From Corynebacterium glutamicum ATCC 13032 (GTDB lineage Bacteria > Actinomycetota > Actinomycetes > Mycobacteriales > Mycobacteriaceae): DNA of 32,000 nucleotides. Where the stretch lies: positions 3,180,001-3,212,000 of the forward strand of contig NC_003450.3 of the NCBI RefSeq assembly GCF_000011325.1, read 5' to 3'. Position 1 is the stretch's first letter. Every line of letters begins with the position of its first letter. Position numbers and translations under genes: made by a program. The notes under the pieces are model-generated. The model searched no databases and was not told the origin of the DNA. It saw only the letters and a list, made by a program, of their open reading frames with translations. Of this stretch, positions 1,335 to 28,028 are shown in pieces.

Positions 1335-2867
1335 TTAACCGCGCGCCATGTCCACAAAACGTGAATAGTGCAGCTGGTGCGCCACCTGGACGGTATCGAT
1401 CGGGCCACCACGGTGCTTAGCCAAAATGATGTCGGCCTCGCCCGCGCGCTCGTCGTCCTTATCCTGGGAGTCTGGGCGGTATAGCAGCATAACGATATCG
1501 GCGTCCTGCTCCAGCGAGCCGGATTCACGAAGGTCAGCAAGCTGTGGTCGCTTATCGGTACGGGATTCAGGTCCACGGTTCAGCTGGGAAATCGCGATCA
1601 ACGGCACATCGAGTTCTTTGGCCAGCAGCTTGAGCTGACGGGAGAACTCGGAGACTTCCTGCTGACGGGATTCCACGCGTTTACCGGAGCTCATCAGCTG
1701 GAGGTAGTCCACCACGATCATTTTCAGATCATGCTTCTGCTTCAGCTTTCTGGCCTTGGAGCGGATTTCCATCATGGTGAGGTTCGCGGAGTCATCGATG
1801 AACAAAGGTGCCTGGGCTACCTTGTCTAACTTCTGCACCATCTTTTCCCATGCGGTTTCATCCATCTTTCCACCACGCATATCAGCCAGGCGGATTTCTG
1901 TTTCTGCAGAGAGCAAACGCATCACGATCTCTGACTTGGACATTTCCAAGGAGAAAATGACAGACGCCATGTTGTTCTTGATGGATGCCGAACGCATGAA
2001 GTCCAAGGCGATGGTGGATTTACCCACACCAGGACGAGCTGCAACGATGATCATCTGGCCACCGCGCAGACCGTTGGTGAGGTCATCGAGATCTTTGAAG
2101 CCGGTTGGAATACCGGTGGCGATGCCGCCGTCGTTGAGCATTTCCAGCTCAGCCATGGTTTCATCCAGAATATCGGCTAGGACTGCATAGTCTTCGCTCT
2201 GATTCTTTTGGGAAACGGCGAAGACTTCTTGCTGCGCGCGGTCAATCACCGCGTCAATTTCGGCGCCTTCATCGCCCTCGTAGCCGAGCTGGACGACGCG
2301 GGTGCCGGCGTCGACAAGCCTGCGAAGCACTGCCTTTTCCGAAACGATTTCCGCATAGTAGCGCGCGTTGGCTGCGGTGGGAACGGACTGGATGAGGTCG
2401 TGGAGGTACGCGCCACCGCCGACGCGGTCCAGATCGTTGGTTCGATCGAGGCGACCGGAGACAATCACGGGGTCAATATCACGGTTGTCACTGAACAGGT
2501 CAATGATCGCCTGGAAAATCAGCTGGTGGGACGGCCTGTAGAAGTCTTCTGGGGTGAGGATATCCAGAATGTCGATGACCGTGGTCGGACTGAGCAGCAT
2601 CGCGCCCAGCACGCCCATCTCAGCGTCATTGTCATAGGGAGGTTGGCGGAAGTCTCGGTATTCACGGGACTCGTCCTTGCGACCCCTCTTCTTGAAGCCC
2701 TGAGAGTCTCCTCCCCTAGTTCCCTGACCAAAGGCCTGGGCCGGGGAGAAATCTTCAAACGCCGGAGCAGGGACATCTACGTGTGCGTCATCCGCGAAGG
2801 AATCGCTTGGCTCCTGTGGAGGTACGTAGTCATCATCAAAACTTGCGGCGTGTGTATCTGTAGCCAT
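1335..2867 (-). CDS. dnaB: Replicative DNA helicase DnaB (510 aa)
   Basis: DnaB N-terminal domain (PPYDNDAEMGVLGAMLLS), Walker A (ARPGVGKST), Walker B (MIVVDYLQLM) and a typical C-terminal RecA-like fold. About 70 aa of acidic, disordered N-terminal extension. No intein-sized insertion. Confidence 0.97.
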   Translation of the reverse strand: MATDTHAASFDDDYVPPQEPSDSFADDAHVDVPAPAFEDFSPAQAFGQGTRGGDSQGFKKRGRKDESREYRDFRQPPYDNDAEMGVLGAMLLSPTTVIDILDILTPEDFYRPSHQLIFQAIIDLFSDNRDIDPVIVSGRLDRTNDLDRVGGGAYLHDLIQSVPTAANARYYAEIVSEKAVLRRLVDAGTRVVQLGYEGDEGAEIDAVIDRAQQEVFAVSQKNQSEDYAVLADILDETMAELEMLNDGGIATGIPTGFKDLDDLTNGLRGGQMIIVAARPGVGKSTIALDFMRSASIKNNMASVIFSLEMSKSEIVMRLLSAETEIRLADMRGGKMDETAWEKMVQKLDKVAQAPLFIDDSANLTMMEIRSKARKLKQKHDLKMIVVDYLQLMSSGKRVESRQQEVSEFSRQLKLLAKELDVPLIAISQLNRGPESRTDKRPQLADLRESGSLEQDADIVMLLYRPDSQDKDDERAGEADIILAKHRGGPIDTVQVAHQLHYSRFVDMARG

Positions 2868-3001
2868 TTTCTTTTCCCCAATCTGATTCTAAGTTCACTC
2901 TAGCCCCTGCATAGGCCTTTCCAGAAGGCACGAAAGCCCCCACCCCGAGGCTTTGTGATTTCCAACTCAACAAGCCGTACAGACACATTCTTTTACAAAA
3001 A

Positions 3002-3311
3002 CAATCCACAGAGCGTTAGGTTAACAACCCTAATTATCCACAGTTTTTAAAAGTTGCACACATTTGCACTCCACGCCTGTGGATAACTTGTGGATAACTT
3101 CCCCACAATTGACATGAATTGAGTCATATCTGCAGGTCACGACGGCGTGTCACACTGTGGATAACTAGTCTCAATCGGTGGATAACTATTCTCACCTGCG
3201 GTTTTAGTGTCCCAAACTCACCGACAATAGGCCTAAGCAGGGGTTATACAGAAAGAGAATAGAAGGTTAACTATCCACAATTACTCACAGTTATCCACAG
3301 GCCTGGGATAA
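3002..3311. promoter_or_regulatory. DnaA-box cluster in the rplI-dnaB intergenic region
   Basis: Perfect TTATCCACA at 3034-3042 and 3291-3299. Perfect complement TGTGGATAA at 3078-3086, 3089-3097 and 3156-3164. One-mismatch boxes at 3177-3185 (gGTGGATAA) and 3271-3279 (cTATCCACA). Two-mismatch boxes at 3002-3010 and 3281-3289. A weak box lies at 3303-3311. Spacing is 11 bp (3078/3089) and 10 bp (3271/3281/3291). Confidence 0.75.
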
Positions 3312-3358
3312 CTTTAAATTCGGGAAAATATCCCTTGTATATTTGTCAAAGTGTGTTA

Positions 3359-3407
3359 GATAAAAAATACTTCAGCCCCACTCCTGCTGTTTGGAGTGGG
3401 GCTGAAG
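3359..3407 (-). terminator. Rho-independent terminator of the rpsF-ssb-rplI operon
   Basis: 15-bp perfect stem CTTCAGCCCCACTCC (3370-3384) / GGAGTGGGGCTGAAG (3393-3407) with an 8-nt loop, followed on the minus strand by TATTTTTTAT. It sits 69 bp after the rplI stop. Confidence 0.85.
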
Positions 3408-3475: not shown

Positions 3476-3928
3476 TTACGCTGCGACGACCTCAAACTTC
3501 ACGCGGGAAACAATTCCGTCGGTGAGCTTTGCTTCTACCTGGTACTTACCGGTGGTCTTAACCAGGTTCTTCGGGAGAACAATGGCACGCTTGTCCAGGT
3601 TCGGGCCGCCGGCTGCCTTGACTGCGTCGACGATGTCGTCAGTCTTAACGGAGCCGAACAGTTTTCCGCTCTCGGAGGTGCGGACTGCAATGGTAACACC
3701 TTCAAGTGCTTCCAGTGCTACCTTAACTTCGCGAGCGTGGTCGAGGTCGCGAATCTCGCGAGCCTCCTGGGCACGCTTGATGCCCTCGATCTGCTTCTCA
3801 GCACCCGGGGTGGCTACGATTGCCAGGCCACGGGGGAGCAGCAGGTTACGTCCGTAGCCGTTCTTAACCTCTACGATGTCGCCAGCGACACCAAGGTTTT
3901 CAACGGCGGCGGTGAGGATCAGCTTCAT
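3476..3928 (-). CDS. rplI: 50S ribosomal protein L9
   Basis: MKLILTAAVENLGVAGDIVEVKNGYGRNLLLPRGLA is the canonical L9 N-terminus. 150 aa. Confidence 0.97.
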   Translation of the reverse strand: MKLILTAAVENLGVAGDIVEVKNGYGRNLLLPRGLAIVATPGAEKQIEGIKRAQEAREIRDLDHAREVKVALEALEGVTIAVRTSESGKLFGSVKTDDIVDAVKAAGGPNLDKRAIVLPKNLVKTTGKYQVEAKLTDGIVSRVKFEVVAA

Positions 3929-3984
3929 GATCCCTGCCTTTCGTGGTTTTTGAGTGTTTGTGAATGTTTTAGAAAAGAAAAGCT

Positions 3985-22952: not shown

Positions 22953-24104
22953 ATGAATCATGTTGTTAATTTTGCTTCACATTTGGAAGACGCAGCCCTG
23001 AAGCAAGCCGAAGCTACTGCCACCATGCCGTTTATTTACCCGCATGTGGCGTTGATGCCTGATGCTCACTTTGGGCTGGGTTCGTCGGTGGGAACGGTGT
23101 TCGGCACCAAGGGTGCGATCATTCCGGCGGCTGTGGGTGTGGATATAGGTTGCGGAATGATAGGAGTGTGTACCAATTACACGGCCTCTGACCTGGAGGG
23201 ACGTGATTTGGTGACGCTTCGGGATTACATCGAGCGGGTGATTCCGTTGTCTCCTGGAAATTACAATTCCACCACCTTGAAGGAAACCGCGAAGGTGAAG
23301 GTCGCGGAGTTGGAGGAACTCGCGGAGCGCGATGGTGTAGATTTGTCGCACTCTCCGACGTGGAAGCGCCAGTTGGGTTCGCTTGGTGGAGGTAATCACT
23401 TCATTGAGTTGTGTCTTGATGAGTTGGATCGGGTGTGGATGTTTTTGCACTCTGGTTCCCGCGGTGTGGGTAACAAGATTGCCCAGAAGCACATCAAGAT
23501 CGCGCAGGCCGAGTGTAAGAATGAGGAGCTTCCCGATAAGGATCTTGCGTACTTGACCGAGGGGACTGAGGAGTTTGAGTCTTACATCAAGGAACTGAAT
23601 TGGGCGCAGCGTTTTGCGTTCCTCAACAGGGAAGAAATGATGGACAGATTCGCACGGGAGCTGGGTTTTTTCGTCGACAAGCAGCTTGAAGAGGTCGAGC
23701 GCATCAACTGCCACCATAACTACACGGTCCAGGAGGAGCACTACGGCGAGACCATTTGGCTCACCCGTAAGGGTGCCGTGTTGGCGGACGAAGGCACGCC
23801 GGCGTTGATTCCGGGGTCGATGGGCACCGCGTCGTACGTGGTCAGTGGCAAGGGCAACGCCGAGGCACTGCGGTCGGCGCCGCATGGGGCGGGCCGGAGG
23901 ATGTCGCGCAACCAGGCTAAAAAGCGCTTCTCGACGGCCGACCTGGATTCTCGGATGGCGGGCATCGTCTACCGGCCCGGCAAGGAGTGGATCGATGAAA
24001 TTCCCGACGCTTACAAAGACATCGATCAGGTGATGGCCGATGCTGCCGATTTGGTGACAATTCGCCATAAATTGCGCCAGATCGTCAACGTGAAAGGCAC
24101 CTAA
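22953..24104 (+). CDS. rtcB: RNA-splicing ligase RtcB (3'-phosphate/5'-hydroxyl RNA ligase)
   Basis: MPDAHFGLGSSVGTV, GVDIGCGM, GGGNHFIEL, HSGSRGVGN and the HGAGR motif are all characteristic RtcB metal and GMP-histidine motifs. Confidence 0.95.
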   Translation: MNHVVNFASHLEDAALKQAEATATMPFIYPHVALMPDAHFGLGSSVGTVFGTKGAIIPAAVGVDIGCGMIGVCTNYTASDLEGRDLVTLRDYIERVIPLSPGNYNSTTLKETAKVKVAELEELAERDGVDLSHSPTWKRQLGSLGGGNHFIELCLDELDRVWMFLHSGSRGVGNKIAQKHIKIAQAECKNEELPDKDLAYLTEGTEEFESYIKELNWAQRFAFLNREEMMDRFARELGFFVDKQLEEVERINCHHNYTVQEEHYGETIWLTRKGAVLADEGTPALIPGSMGTASYVVSGKGNAEALRSAPHGAGRRMSRNQAKKRFSTADLDSRMAGIVYRPGKEWIDEIPDAYKDIDQVMADAADLVTIRHKLRQIVNVKGT

Positions 24105-24156
24105 AGCGCATTAACGGTAAAGTGCGAGAGGTATTTTGACGGGTTTAGATTGAGGG

Positions 24157-24732
24157 ATGTGGATAGTGCTGAAAATCCGACGGCTGCTTCTACGCCGTGT
24201 CCTTCCGCTACTCATCACCTTGGCGCTCCTGTGCGGACTGGTGCTTGCGTGGTTTATCTATCCTGCGAAGGCTGAGCCCAAAAAAGTTGATGTAGTTCTG
24301 GTGCTGGCCGGTTCCAGCGATGGTCGACACGAATATGGTGCCGAGCTTGTTGAAGAAGGCTACGCCAGCAATTACGTCGTCTCCAACCCGAGTGGCTCCA
24401 AAGACAAAGTGGGATATGCCCACTGCGCAGGAAAGTCACGGCCAAAAAATGCGGAAAGTTTCTGCATGGATCCTTACCCCGTGATCACCTCCGGCGAAGC
24501 CCGCACGTTTAACGAGCTTGCCAAAAAGGAAGGCTGGGAAAGCGTATTGGTAGTGACCAGCCGCACGCACACCCAACGCGTTCGCACCATGTTTGACCAG
24601 TGCTATACCGGTGATTCCACAGTGCTCAACGTCAACAGCCTAGGACGTACCGGGCTTCACAATGCAGTACTCCACGAGATTGGCGGCTTCATTAAATTTT
24701 GGATTACCGCTCCGTGCGCGGACACAAACTAA
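24157..24732 (+). CDS. DUF218 (YdcF/SanA/ElyC-like) domain membrane-anchored protein
   Basis: N-terminal TM helix, then VDVVLVLAGSSDGR ... VLVVTSRTHTQR, typical of DUF218. The alternative GTG start at 24166 has better RBS spacing. Confidence 0.78.
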   Translation: MWIVLKIRRLLLRRVLPLLITLALLCGLVLAWFIYPAKAEPKKVDVVLVLAGSSDGRHEYGAELVEEGYASNYVVSNPSGSKDKVGYAHCAGKSRPKNAESFCMDPYPVITSGEARTFNELAKKEGWESVLVVTSRTHTQRVRTMFDQCYTGDSTVLNVNSLGRTGLHNAVLHEIGGFIKFWITAPCADTN

Positions 24733-26849: not shown

Positions 26850-28028
26850 ATGAGCACCACCACCGCGCCCGAAGCACGGTTTCCTGTCGTCCCTTTGACC
26901 GCCATGAGTTTCGCGGCATTTGTTTATGTCACGTTCGAGATGTTTGCAGTTGGCCTCATCAAGCCGATGGCCAGCGATCTTGGAGTGTCAGAATCCAGCA
27001 TCGGCCTGTTGATGACTGTGTATGCGACTGTCGTTGCCGTGGTGACGATCCCTGCCATGTTGTGGGTTTCTCGATTTAACAAGCGCACAGTTTTCCTGAT
27101 TACTCTGGCATTTTTGGCCACGGGCATTGTTGTTCAGGCACTGACCGTTAATTATGGAATGCTAGCCATCGGCCGCACTATCGCAGCATTGACTCACGGG
27201 GTGTTTTGGGCACTTGTTGGGCCAATGGCAGCGCGTATGTCCCCAGGTCACACTGGTCGTGCAGTAGGCGTTGTGTCGATTGGATCAACCATGGCGCTGG
27301 TCGTTGGTTCTCCGCTGGCAACATGGATCGGTGAACTCATCGGATGGCGTCCTGCCACCTGGATTCTTGGTGCGCTGACCATTGCGGCCGTGGCTGTACT
27401 CATTCCAACCGTTCCATCACTGCCACCACTTCCAGACACGGAATCAGAGTCCAAAGAAAAGAAATCCCTTCCATGGGGTCTCATTTCCCTGGTCATTTTC
27501 CTTCTCCTTGCCGTCACCGGTGTTTTTGCTGCCTACACCTACCTTGGCCTCATCATCGCTGAAACAGCAGGGGACAGCTTCGTGTCCATTGGCTTGTTCG
27601 CCTTCGGTGCACTCGGACTCATTGGCGTGACAGTGGCAACCCGAACTGTGGATCAACGCATGCTGCGTGGAAGTGTTCACACCACCACTTTGTTTGTCAT
27701 TGCTGCAATTCTCGGACAGATCGCATTCGGATTAGAGGGCACACTAGCCGTAGTAGCTATCTTCCTTGCAGTCACCGTGTTTGGTGGAGCATACGGCGCT
27801 CTCCCAACCCTGGGAACCACCATCTTCCTCCATGCGGGTCGCGACCACCCAGATACTGCATCCTCCATTTATGTGGTCACTTACCAAGTGGGTATCGCGT
27901 CTGGCGCGGCACTTGGCGCGATGGCTGTGGATGCCGATTGGGTTGCTGGCACTTTGTGGATCATGGCTGGACTGTCATTGGCTTCCACGTTGGCCTTGGC
28001 GCTGTGGTCCCGCCCGCTACTGAAGTAG
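26850..28028 (+). CDS. MFS transporter (12 TM, sugar/drug efflux-like)
   Basis: 392 aa, about 12 hydrophobic segments, with the MFS loop 2-3 motif region (WVSRFNKRTV). Confidence 0.88.
   Translation: MSTTTAPEARFPVVPLTAMSFAAFVYVTFEMFAVGLIKPMASDLGVSESSIGLLMTVYATVVAVVTIPAMLWVSRFNKRTVFLITLAFLATGIVVQALTVNYGMLAIGRTIAALTHGVFWALVGPMAARMSPGHTGRAVGVVSIGSTMALVVGSPLATWIGELIGWRPATWILGALTIAAVAVLIPTVPSLPPLPDTESESKEKKSLPWGLISLVIFLLLAVTGVFAAYTYLGLIIAETAGDSFVSIGLFAFGALGLIGVTVATRTVDQRMLRGSVHTTTLFVIAAILGQIAFGLEGTLAVVAIFLAVTVFGGAYGALPTLGTTIFLHAGRDHPDTASSIYVVTYQVGIASGAALGAMAVDADWVAGTLWIMAGLSLASTLALALWSRPLLK

Follow-up and report, generated by a model that had tools for sequence, protein, structure and literature searches.

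Why does a dense array of DnaA boxes lie in front of the replicative helicase gene of Corynebacterium glutamicum, in a region that holds neither dnaA nor dnaN? The question arises from a 32,000-nucleotide stretch of the genome of strain ATCC 13032 (contig NC_003450.3), called the window throughout, for which a preliminary description made from the sequence alone had pointed out a phased cluster of DnaA-box 9-mers at positions 3002-3311, in the spacer between rplI and dnaB. The answer favoured here, with moderate confidence, is that the cluster binds DnaA and makes up both the core and the upstream regulatory region of the dnaB promoter. The element is real and probably functional, and it is the counterpart of the strongest experimentally mapped DnaA site of mycobacteria. 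Published genome coordinates used below were converted to window positions by subtracting a constant offset of 3,153,306, which was verified with the string at the dnaB ribosome-binding site and with the rplI terminator.

The box content can be read directly from the window. Its 32 kb contain only five perfect TTATCCACA boxes, at 3034(+), 3078(-), 3089(-), 3156(-) and 3291(+), all of them within 3034-3299, while dinucleotide shuffles of the window contain 0.25 on average and none of 100 shuffles reaches five. Matches with at most one mismatch number 16 in the whole window against 5.4 expected, and seven lie within 266 bp in the cluster, where 3177(-) and 3271(+) are the two with a single mismatch. 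Boxes with two mismatches are found at 3002(+) and 3281(+). The recount thus returns the five perfect, two 1-mismatch and two 2-mismatch boxes of the preliminary description, together with two further 2-mismatch matches that it did not list, at 3099(+) and 3244(+); neither is conserved in relatives, and both were dropped from the cluster as chance matches. The boxes share an extended 12-mer, AGTTATCCACAG. They are arranged in orientation blocks of + + / - - - - / + + + along the cluster, with a step of 11 bp for 3078/3089 and of 10 bp for 3271/3281/3291, and they lie beyond the rplI terminator (3407-3370), 135-444 bp upstream of the dnaB ATG. Phasing, orientation and location are therefore as first described, and the claim that the cluster is not due to chance agrees with the shuffles. 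One more site at 3303-3311 differs from the consensus at three positions and is invariant in seven of nine columns across the four species compared below, and may on this basis be counted as a DnaA box. Elsewhere in the window, three 1-mismatch matches spread over about 1 kb around an rtcB-like gene (23138-24166) fall within the window-wide chance rate and are judged to be noise.

Conservation was assessed with an alignment of the spacer from four species, namely the window, C. suranareeae, C. crudilactis and an 85%-identity metagenome-assembled genome (MAG). Invariant columns make up 82% of the boxes and 41% of the sequence outside them (Fisher p = 7.5e-12). Boxes 3078, 3089, 3156, 3177, 3271 and 3291 together have 52 invariant columns out of 54, with 17 of 18 in the tandem pair 3078/3089 and again in the middle pair 3156/3177. 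The outer boxes of the distal trio are invariant in all nine columns each, and its middle box is a better match in two relatives and gone in one. The promoter-proximal boxes 3034 and 3002 turn over between close relatives: the first retains five of nine invariant columns and the second is a perfect match in the MAG. The stem of the rplI terminator is kept in all four species. In C. suranareeae, an insertion between terminator and cluster (about 1930-2500 of locus L082) has doubled the spacer to 1187 bp and left every box intact.

This pattern bears on the possibility that the boxes accumulated by chance or neutral drift, or that they are sites of a different DNA-binding protein. Motifs other than boxes are also conserved in the spacer, including GTTAAC-containing 13-mers, GCAGGT/ACCTGC arms and GTCAC repeats, and other factors may therefore bind there too. 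The two 13-mers, which contain AGGTTAAC, lie at 3018-3030 and 3264-3276, and one of them includes the transcription start; the inverted GCAGGT/ACCTGC arms at 3130-3140 and 3193-3201 bracket boxes 3156 and 3177; the two GTCAC repeats are 13 bp apart, at 3136-3140 and 3149-3153; and TATAACCCCTGCTTAGG is conserved at 3229-3253. Such motifs may be sites of another regulator. A 25-nt inverted repeat (I1; 2894-2918 and 3229-3253) was rejected as a part of the element since only its upstream arm is conserved. The boxes themselves, however, stand out as islands of identity in a diverging spacer, their number is reached by none of the shuffles, a cluster of the same motif precedes dnaB in distant genera too, and DnaA binding has been demonstrated at the mycobacterial orthologue. 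This reading is effectively refuted by conservation, and it is given almost no probability.

The alignment also bears on the two AT-rich stretches to which attention had been drawn. Both are present, with 67% AT at 3041-3070 and 74% at 3312-3369, but the enrichment is only moderate; the first is simply the spacer of the dnaB promoter as mapped, from -17 to -45, and the second is not kept, having given way in C. suranareeae to an insertion of about 580 bp and in the MAG to GC-rich DNA. Dense phased boxes in opposed orientation blocks, with a 74% AT stretch beside them, would suit an origin of replication, be it secondary, cryptic or ancestral. That AT-rich stretch is not conserved even in close relatives, however, and no DnaA-trio run was found on either strand of the spacer under a simple criterion of our own (four triplets with a central A, at least two of them TAG or TAA). 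The cumulative GC skew has no turning point near 3 kb of the window, and a scan of its 27 larger open reading frames (ORFs) for DnaA and DnaN domains returned none, in agreement with the preliminary description. An origin-like element, the third of the roles proposed there, is rejected on these grounds; the region also has a mapped promoter function, and the reading is considered very improbable.

The spacer has a counterpart in mycobacteria. Genes of the window are ordered rpsF-ssb-rplI-terminator-608-bp spacer-dnaB on the minus strand, and the M. tuberculosis complex and M. marinum have the order rpsF-ssb-rpsR-rplI-spacer-dnaB, so that the boxes occupy the same syntenic slot, in a spacer of similar length (528-531 bp) in mycobacteria. 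The gene rpsR (S18) is missing between ssb and rplI in the Corynebacterium loci (window 3929-3984) and present there in Mycobacterium (L086 2714-2968) and Streptomyces (L088 5746-5982). Measured from the dnaB start, TTGTCCACA occurs at -296 in the M. tuberculosis complex and at -298 in M. marinum, and corresponds to window box 3156 at -297 from the ATG. A tandem pair in dnaB sense follows at -231/-220 in M. tuberculosis and -233/-222 in M. marinum, and at -230/-219 in the window. Corynebacterium and Mycobacterium thus share a core of one box at about -297 and an 11-bp pair at -230/-219 (-230/-220 as a common layout), and both synteny and box arrangement mark the window spacer as an orthologue of the mycobacterial rplI-dnaB DnaA site. 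The two differ in the number of boxes: about three recognisable boxes of the TTGTCCACA type are present in mycobacteria, whereas the window has seven of the TTATCCACA type at one mismatch or less and two to three weaker ones, with extra distal and promoter-overlapping boxes. The conservation across Corynebacterium and Mycobacterium that had been proposed as a check is accordingly found, both in the four-species alignment and in the core of M. tuberculosis and M. marinum.

At the mycobacterial site, DnaA binding has been measured. IDAP-seq, an in vitro pull-down of genomic DNA with purified M. tuberculosis DnaA, and chromatin immunoprecipitation sequencing (ChIP-seq) of myc-tagged DnaA in M. 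smegmatis identify the same five sites, one of them given as 'Rv0057 (upstream of dnaB)' (Hicks 2020, PMC7738170). The top M. tuberculosis IDAP-seq windows (H37Rv 60175-60200) precede dnaB by 195-220 nt (Hicks 2020, PMC7738170), and when these are placed on the spacer the in vitro binding maximum falls on the tandem pair. In M. smegmatis, dnaB-rplI is the top ChIP peak, with 225-fold enrichment versus 44-fold at oriC; the M. tuberculosis DnaA variant I282T has about 3-fold lower enrichment at the dnaB-upstream site, and in the mutant dnaB is among the most down-regulated genes (log2 -0.70, p = 1e-49) (Hicks 2020, PMC7738170). The M. tuberculosis dnaB gene has starts at -111 and -260 (Shell 2015), so that the tandem pair falls between the two, with the stronger start downstream of it and the weaker one upstream. 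In H37Rv, the M. tuberculosis complex spacer (L086 3460-3987) is annotated as the hypothetical gene Rv0057. Because the DnaA boxes, the windows with the highest DnaA binding and both dnaB starts all lie within it, Rv0057 probably represents regulatory DNA and not a gene.

Beyond mycobacteria, loci were compared from two kinds of search. The Mycobacterium and Streptomyces loci were retrieved with approximate L9 bait sequences, and conclusions rest on the database proteins and loci that these found. A profile search with DnaB gave at least six actinobacterial loci among the matches listed, which are mostly from distant Firmicutes. Clusters upstream of dnaB are present in C. suranareeae, C. crudilactis, the MAG and C. 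durum, the last with four boxes that include an 11-bp tandem pair. An uncultured Corynebacterium (L001) has an eight-box cluster (764-968) directly after the rplI terminator, and a GH15/trehalase-like gene of 573 aa (1163-2884), which ends 75 bp before dnaB, between the intact cluster and dnaB; the cluster may drive a two-gene operon in this case. Nocardioides, Marmoricola and three actinomycete MAGs have three to six boxes directly upstream of dnaB, with other genes separating rplI. In Streptomyces, a divergent MatE gene stands between rplI and dnaB, and its spacer with dnaB has five to six boxes, located from -191 to -291; 12.4 kb of this locus contain only one or two boxes outside the cluster, 1.8 are expected in total, and none of 200 shuffles reaches seven. 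The cluster is found upstream of dnaB even where rplI is not adjacent, and therefore tracks dnaB and not rplI.

The same profile search served as a negative control. Among the matches listed, 74 loci outside the Actinomycetia (mostly Clostridia, plus Gaiellaceae and Acidimicrobiales) have no cluster upstream of dnaB, with zero to three boxes per 600 bp and mostly none. The distribution is so far confined to those orders of Actinomycetia that were sampled. In some Firmicutes, clusters of DnaA boxes follow the helicase gene and do not precede it (L075 4333-4453, L077 4332-4551, L029 6406-6547 and L019 6174-6313); two Peptostreptococcaceae carry five to six boxes in the spacer directly after dnaB, before a gene of about 428 aa, and Clostridium beijerinckii has a six-box array with a step of about 26 bp. 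Footprint-like conservation of the boxes, the association of the cluster with dnaB across Actinomycetia and the rank of the orthologous spacer as the top DnaA site of M. tuberculosis in vitro and of M. smegmatis in vivo together constitute strong indirect evidence for what had been proposed, namely that DnaA has a secondary binding locus upstream of dnaB, apart from oriC.

The position of the array relative to the dnaB promoter is known from published transcript data. The only start reported for cg3304 (dnaB) from RNA sequencing is 3,156,331, with a 158-nt 5' untranslated region (5'UTR) (Pfeifer-Sancar 2013, PMC3890552, supplement 5). The same 5' end is independently listed for a short RNA (Mentz 2013). 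The gene is classed as monocistronic, the rplI operon before it, cg3306-cg3314, ends in an effective terminator, and the published terminator at 3156674-3156715, scored as significant termination, is the rplI terminator of the window (Pfeifer-Sancar 2013, PMC3890552). The best candidate for the -10 element is GATAAT at 3038-3033. With the start at 3025, the perfect box at 3034-3042 therefore covers the -10, and the other boxes are located at -53/-72, -131/-160, -246/-286 and +16/+24. DnaA boxes thus overlap and adjoin an experimentally mapped promoter, as is expected of a DnaA-regulated promoter. Among the roles listed in the preliminary description, control of dnaB expression is the best supported, by this geometry and by the fall of dnaB mRNA in the M. 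tuberculosis I282T mutant.

The same transcript data raise the alternative that the conserved inverted blocks reflect a structured RNA, with the region encoding or belonging to the small RNA cgb_33045. This 45-nt 'trans-encoded sRNA' is reported at 3156331-3156287, or window 3025-2981 on the minus strand, and an RNAz conserved-structure hit with p = 0.91 is reported at 3156621-3156254, or window 3315-2948 (Mentz 2013), a span that coincides almost exactly with the box cluster. The RNAz region is, however, almost wholly upstream of the only mapped start, so that it is not transcribed from the dnaB promoter, and what is conserved is a set of blocks that match the DnaA-box 9-mer exactly, in either orientation; inverted copies of the 12-mer would mimic helices. 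The short RNA has the 5' end of the dnaB mRNA and is most simply, and probably, a fragment of the dnaB leader. A scan of the spacer against Rfam gave only sub-threshold noise and no family, and the predicted fold of the 158-nt leader is unremarkable (z = -1.58). With no Rfam family, an RNAz region upstream of the start and an unremarkable leader fold, the structured-RNA reading was rejected, and it is considered as improbable as an origin; the RNAz signal probably arises at the DNA level, as an artefact of boxes that are conserved and inverted.

Under the favoured reading of promoter control, DnaA would bind the high-affinity 9-mers of the array, and the phased boxes of equal orientation, with steps of 10, 11 and 21 bp, would permit cooperative DnaA oligomers to form. 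Occupied upstream arrays, above all the tandem pair at -53 to -72, may then tune the recruitment of RNA polymerase. The sign would probably be positive, as in M. tuberculosis, and the upstream pair would occupy an activator-like position that agrees with the M. tuberculosis mutant data; for Corynebacterium, both this sign and any influence on initiation are inferred. The box on the -10 and the box in the early leader would limit transcription when DnaA is abundant, and the supply of helicase would thereby be coupled to the level of the initiator. The array probably also sequesters a meaningful share of DnaA.

Several points weigh against this reading. The DnaA binding and dnaB expression data come from mycobacterial relatives and not from Corynebacterium, and the promoter geometry is related but not identical, with the start at -158 in C. 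glutamicum versus -111 and -260 in M. tuberculosis. The number of boxes in M. tuberculosis is by itself not above chance (3 versus 1.3 expected; 36 of 200 shuffles reach 3). The box on the -10 predicts repression and the M. tuberculosis mutant data point to activation, so the sign of regulation is ambiguous. The proximal boxes (3034 and 3002) are the least conserved and the far-upstream arrays the most, a pattern that suits a sink or an architectural role no less than it suits simple promoter control, and in L001 the 1.7-kb GH15 gene parts an intact eight-box cluster from dnaB.

The last two observations lead to the alternative that the array is primarily a DnaA sink of the datA or Streptomyces D78 type, which would sequester DnaA or inactivate DnaA-ATP near the origin and restrain re-initiation, its effect on dnaB being secondary. 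The window does contain a dense high-affinity box cluster outside oriC, as is expected of a titration locus, and nine to ten boxes exceed the needs of a promoter switch. The M. smegmatis locus binds more DnaA than oriC in vivo, and its M. tuberculosis counterpart is the top site in vitro. The locus also lies close to the origin in C. glutamicum (about 126 kb, measured from coordinate 0), M. tuberculosis (about 60 kb) and M. smegmatis (about 47 kb), and the C. glutamicum array would therefore be duplicated early in each replication round. Where synteny is broken, in Streptomyces and Nocardioides, the cluster nevertheless stays with dnaB and not with rplI or at a fixed position; one box lies on the -10 of the mapped promoter, dnaB expression varies with DnaA binding in M. 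tuberculosis, and no initiation phenotype is known for the site in any species. A primary role as a sink is considered rather unlikely, and sequestration is treated here as the main rival or the complement of promoter control.

The features of the locus are collected in Table 1.

Table 1. Features of the rplI-dnaB region in window coordinates, with signed distances counted from the dnaB transcription start
Feature	Position	Strand	Description
rpsF	4998-4699	-	ORF of the window
ssb	4662-3985	-	ORF of the window
rplI (ribosomal protein L9)	3476-3928	-	Pfam Ribosomal_L9_N and Ribosomal_L9_C; the upstream operon ends with this gene
Intrinsic terminator of the rplI operon	3370-3407	-	15-bp stem followed by a T-run
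AT-rich filler	3312-3369	.	74% AT; between the rplI terminator and the first box
Conserved degenerate box (putative) TTATCCCAG	3303-3311	-	Head-to-head with box 3291, 3 bp between; -278 to -286
Distal trio CTATCCACA, TTACTCACA, TTATCCACA	3271-3299	+	10-bp step; -246 to -274
Middle pair TTATCCACA (3156) and TTATCCACC (3177)	3156-3185	-	21 bp apart; -131 to -160
Tandem perfect pair	3078-3097	-	11-bp step, dnaB sense; -53 to -72
Perfect box over the -10	3034-3042	+	-9 to -17
dnaB transcription start	3025	-	3,156,331 converted to the window
2-mismatch box CAATCCACA	3002-3010	+	In the 5'UTR; +16 to +24
dnaB 5' leader	2868-3024	-	158 nt including the start base; published start
dnaB, replicative DNA helicase	1335-2867	-	510 aa; Pfam DnaB and DnaB_C

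The DnaB protein of the window shares 96% identity with the replicative DNA helicase of C. suranareeae and 95% with its C. crudilactis counterpart. Two 392-aa ORFs elsewhere in the window, at 26850 and 28280, were considered as duplicates and found to be unrelated, one being a transporter of the major facilitator superfamily and the other a malic enzyme.

Several known systems resemble the array in part. In Escherichia coli, datA is a high-affinity DnaA-box cluster outside oriC that is replicated early, and it needs an IHF site and acts by stimulated hydrolysis of DnaA-ATP. Like datA, the window array could lower free or active DnaA after initiation, whereas datA is not the promoter of a replication gene; to our knowledge, actinobacteria have no classical IHF. 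Streptomyces coelicolor reportedly has DnaA-box clusters outside but near oriC (H69, H24 and D78, in work of 2006 attributed to Smulczyk-Krawczyszyn), of which D78 is said to bind DnaA more tightly than oriC and to alter the initiation frequency when deleted or amplified. These are, like the window array, origin-near boxes outside oriC in an actinomycete, and D78 is described as a titration element and not as a promoter. Cluster H24 may be the Streptomyces cluster upstream of dnaB, a guess based on dnaB being SCO3911 on cosmid H24.

In Bacillus subtilis, DnaA binds intergenic arrays of the consensus TTATCCACA box; the neighbouring promoter is repressed or activated by some of these arrays, and jointly they restrain initiation. 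Work of 2012 ascribed to Okumura is said to have described these DnaA-box clusters and DnaA-regulated promoters that include dnaA, sda, ywlC and yydA. The dual logic is the same as that proposed for the window array and the target genes differ; among the matches listed, the sampled Firmicutes have no cluster upstream of the helicase gene. For Caulobacter crescentus, DnaA-dependent expression of dnaB is mentioned through a further reference (ref. 40 in Hicks 2020, PMC7738170). As in the reading favoured here, the initiator would act there as a transcription factor for the helicase gene, in an unrelated phylum and probably by convergence; the Caulobacter dnaB promoter is, as far as that mention goes, not known as a dense multi-box array.

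An element of this kind is thus already known, experimentally from mycobacteria (2020) and through related clusters from Streptomyces (2006). The literature searched yielded no C. glutamicum DnaA ChIP data and no description of the cluster for Corynebacterium, nor a statement of its conservation across Actinomycetia or of its overlap with the mapped C. glutamicum dnaB promoter. With the array recognised, the published RNAz and small-RNA annotation of the cgb_33045 region can probably be explained as a DNA-level signal.

The conserved link between DnaA and the helicase gene in actinobacteria, which include M. tuberculosis, industrial Corynebacterium and Streptomyces, is an under-studied control point. 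The mycobacterial site out-competes oriC for DnaA, and the C. glutamicum version offers many perfect boxes, a mapped promoter and easy genetics, which make C. glutamicum the better system for parting promoter control from titration. It is conceivable, as a tentative extension, that the array upstream of dnaB is the actinobacterial counterpart of datA, that is, the genome's highest-affinity DnaA site, conserved across Actinomycetia, which would set the initiation frequency by sequestering DnaA right after origin firing and would tie helicase synthesis to the availability of the initiator, the Corynebacterium lineage having expanded it from about three to about ten boxes. If this were true, the 'licence to initiate' and the helicase supply would be linked through one compact element.

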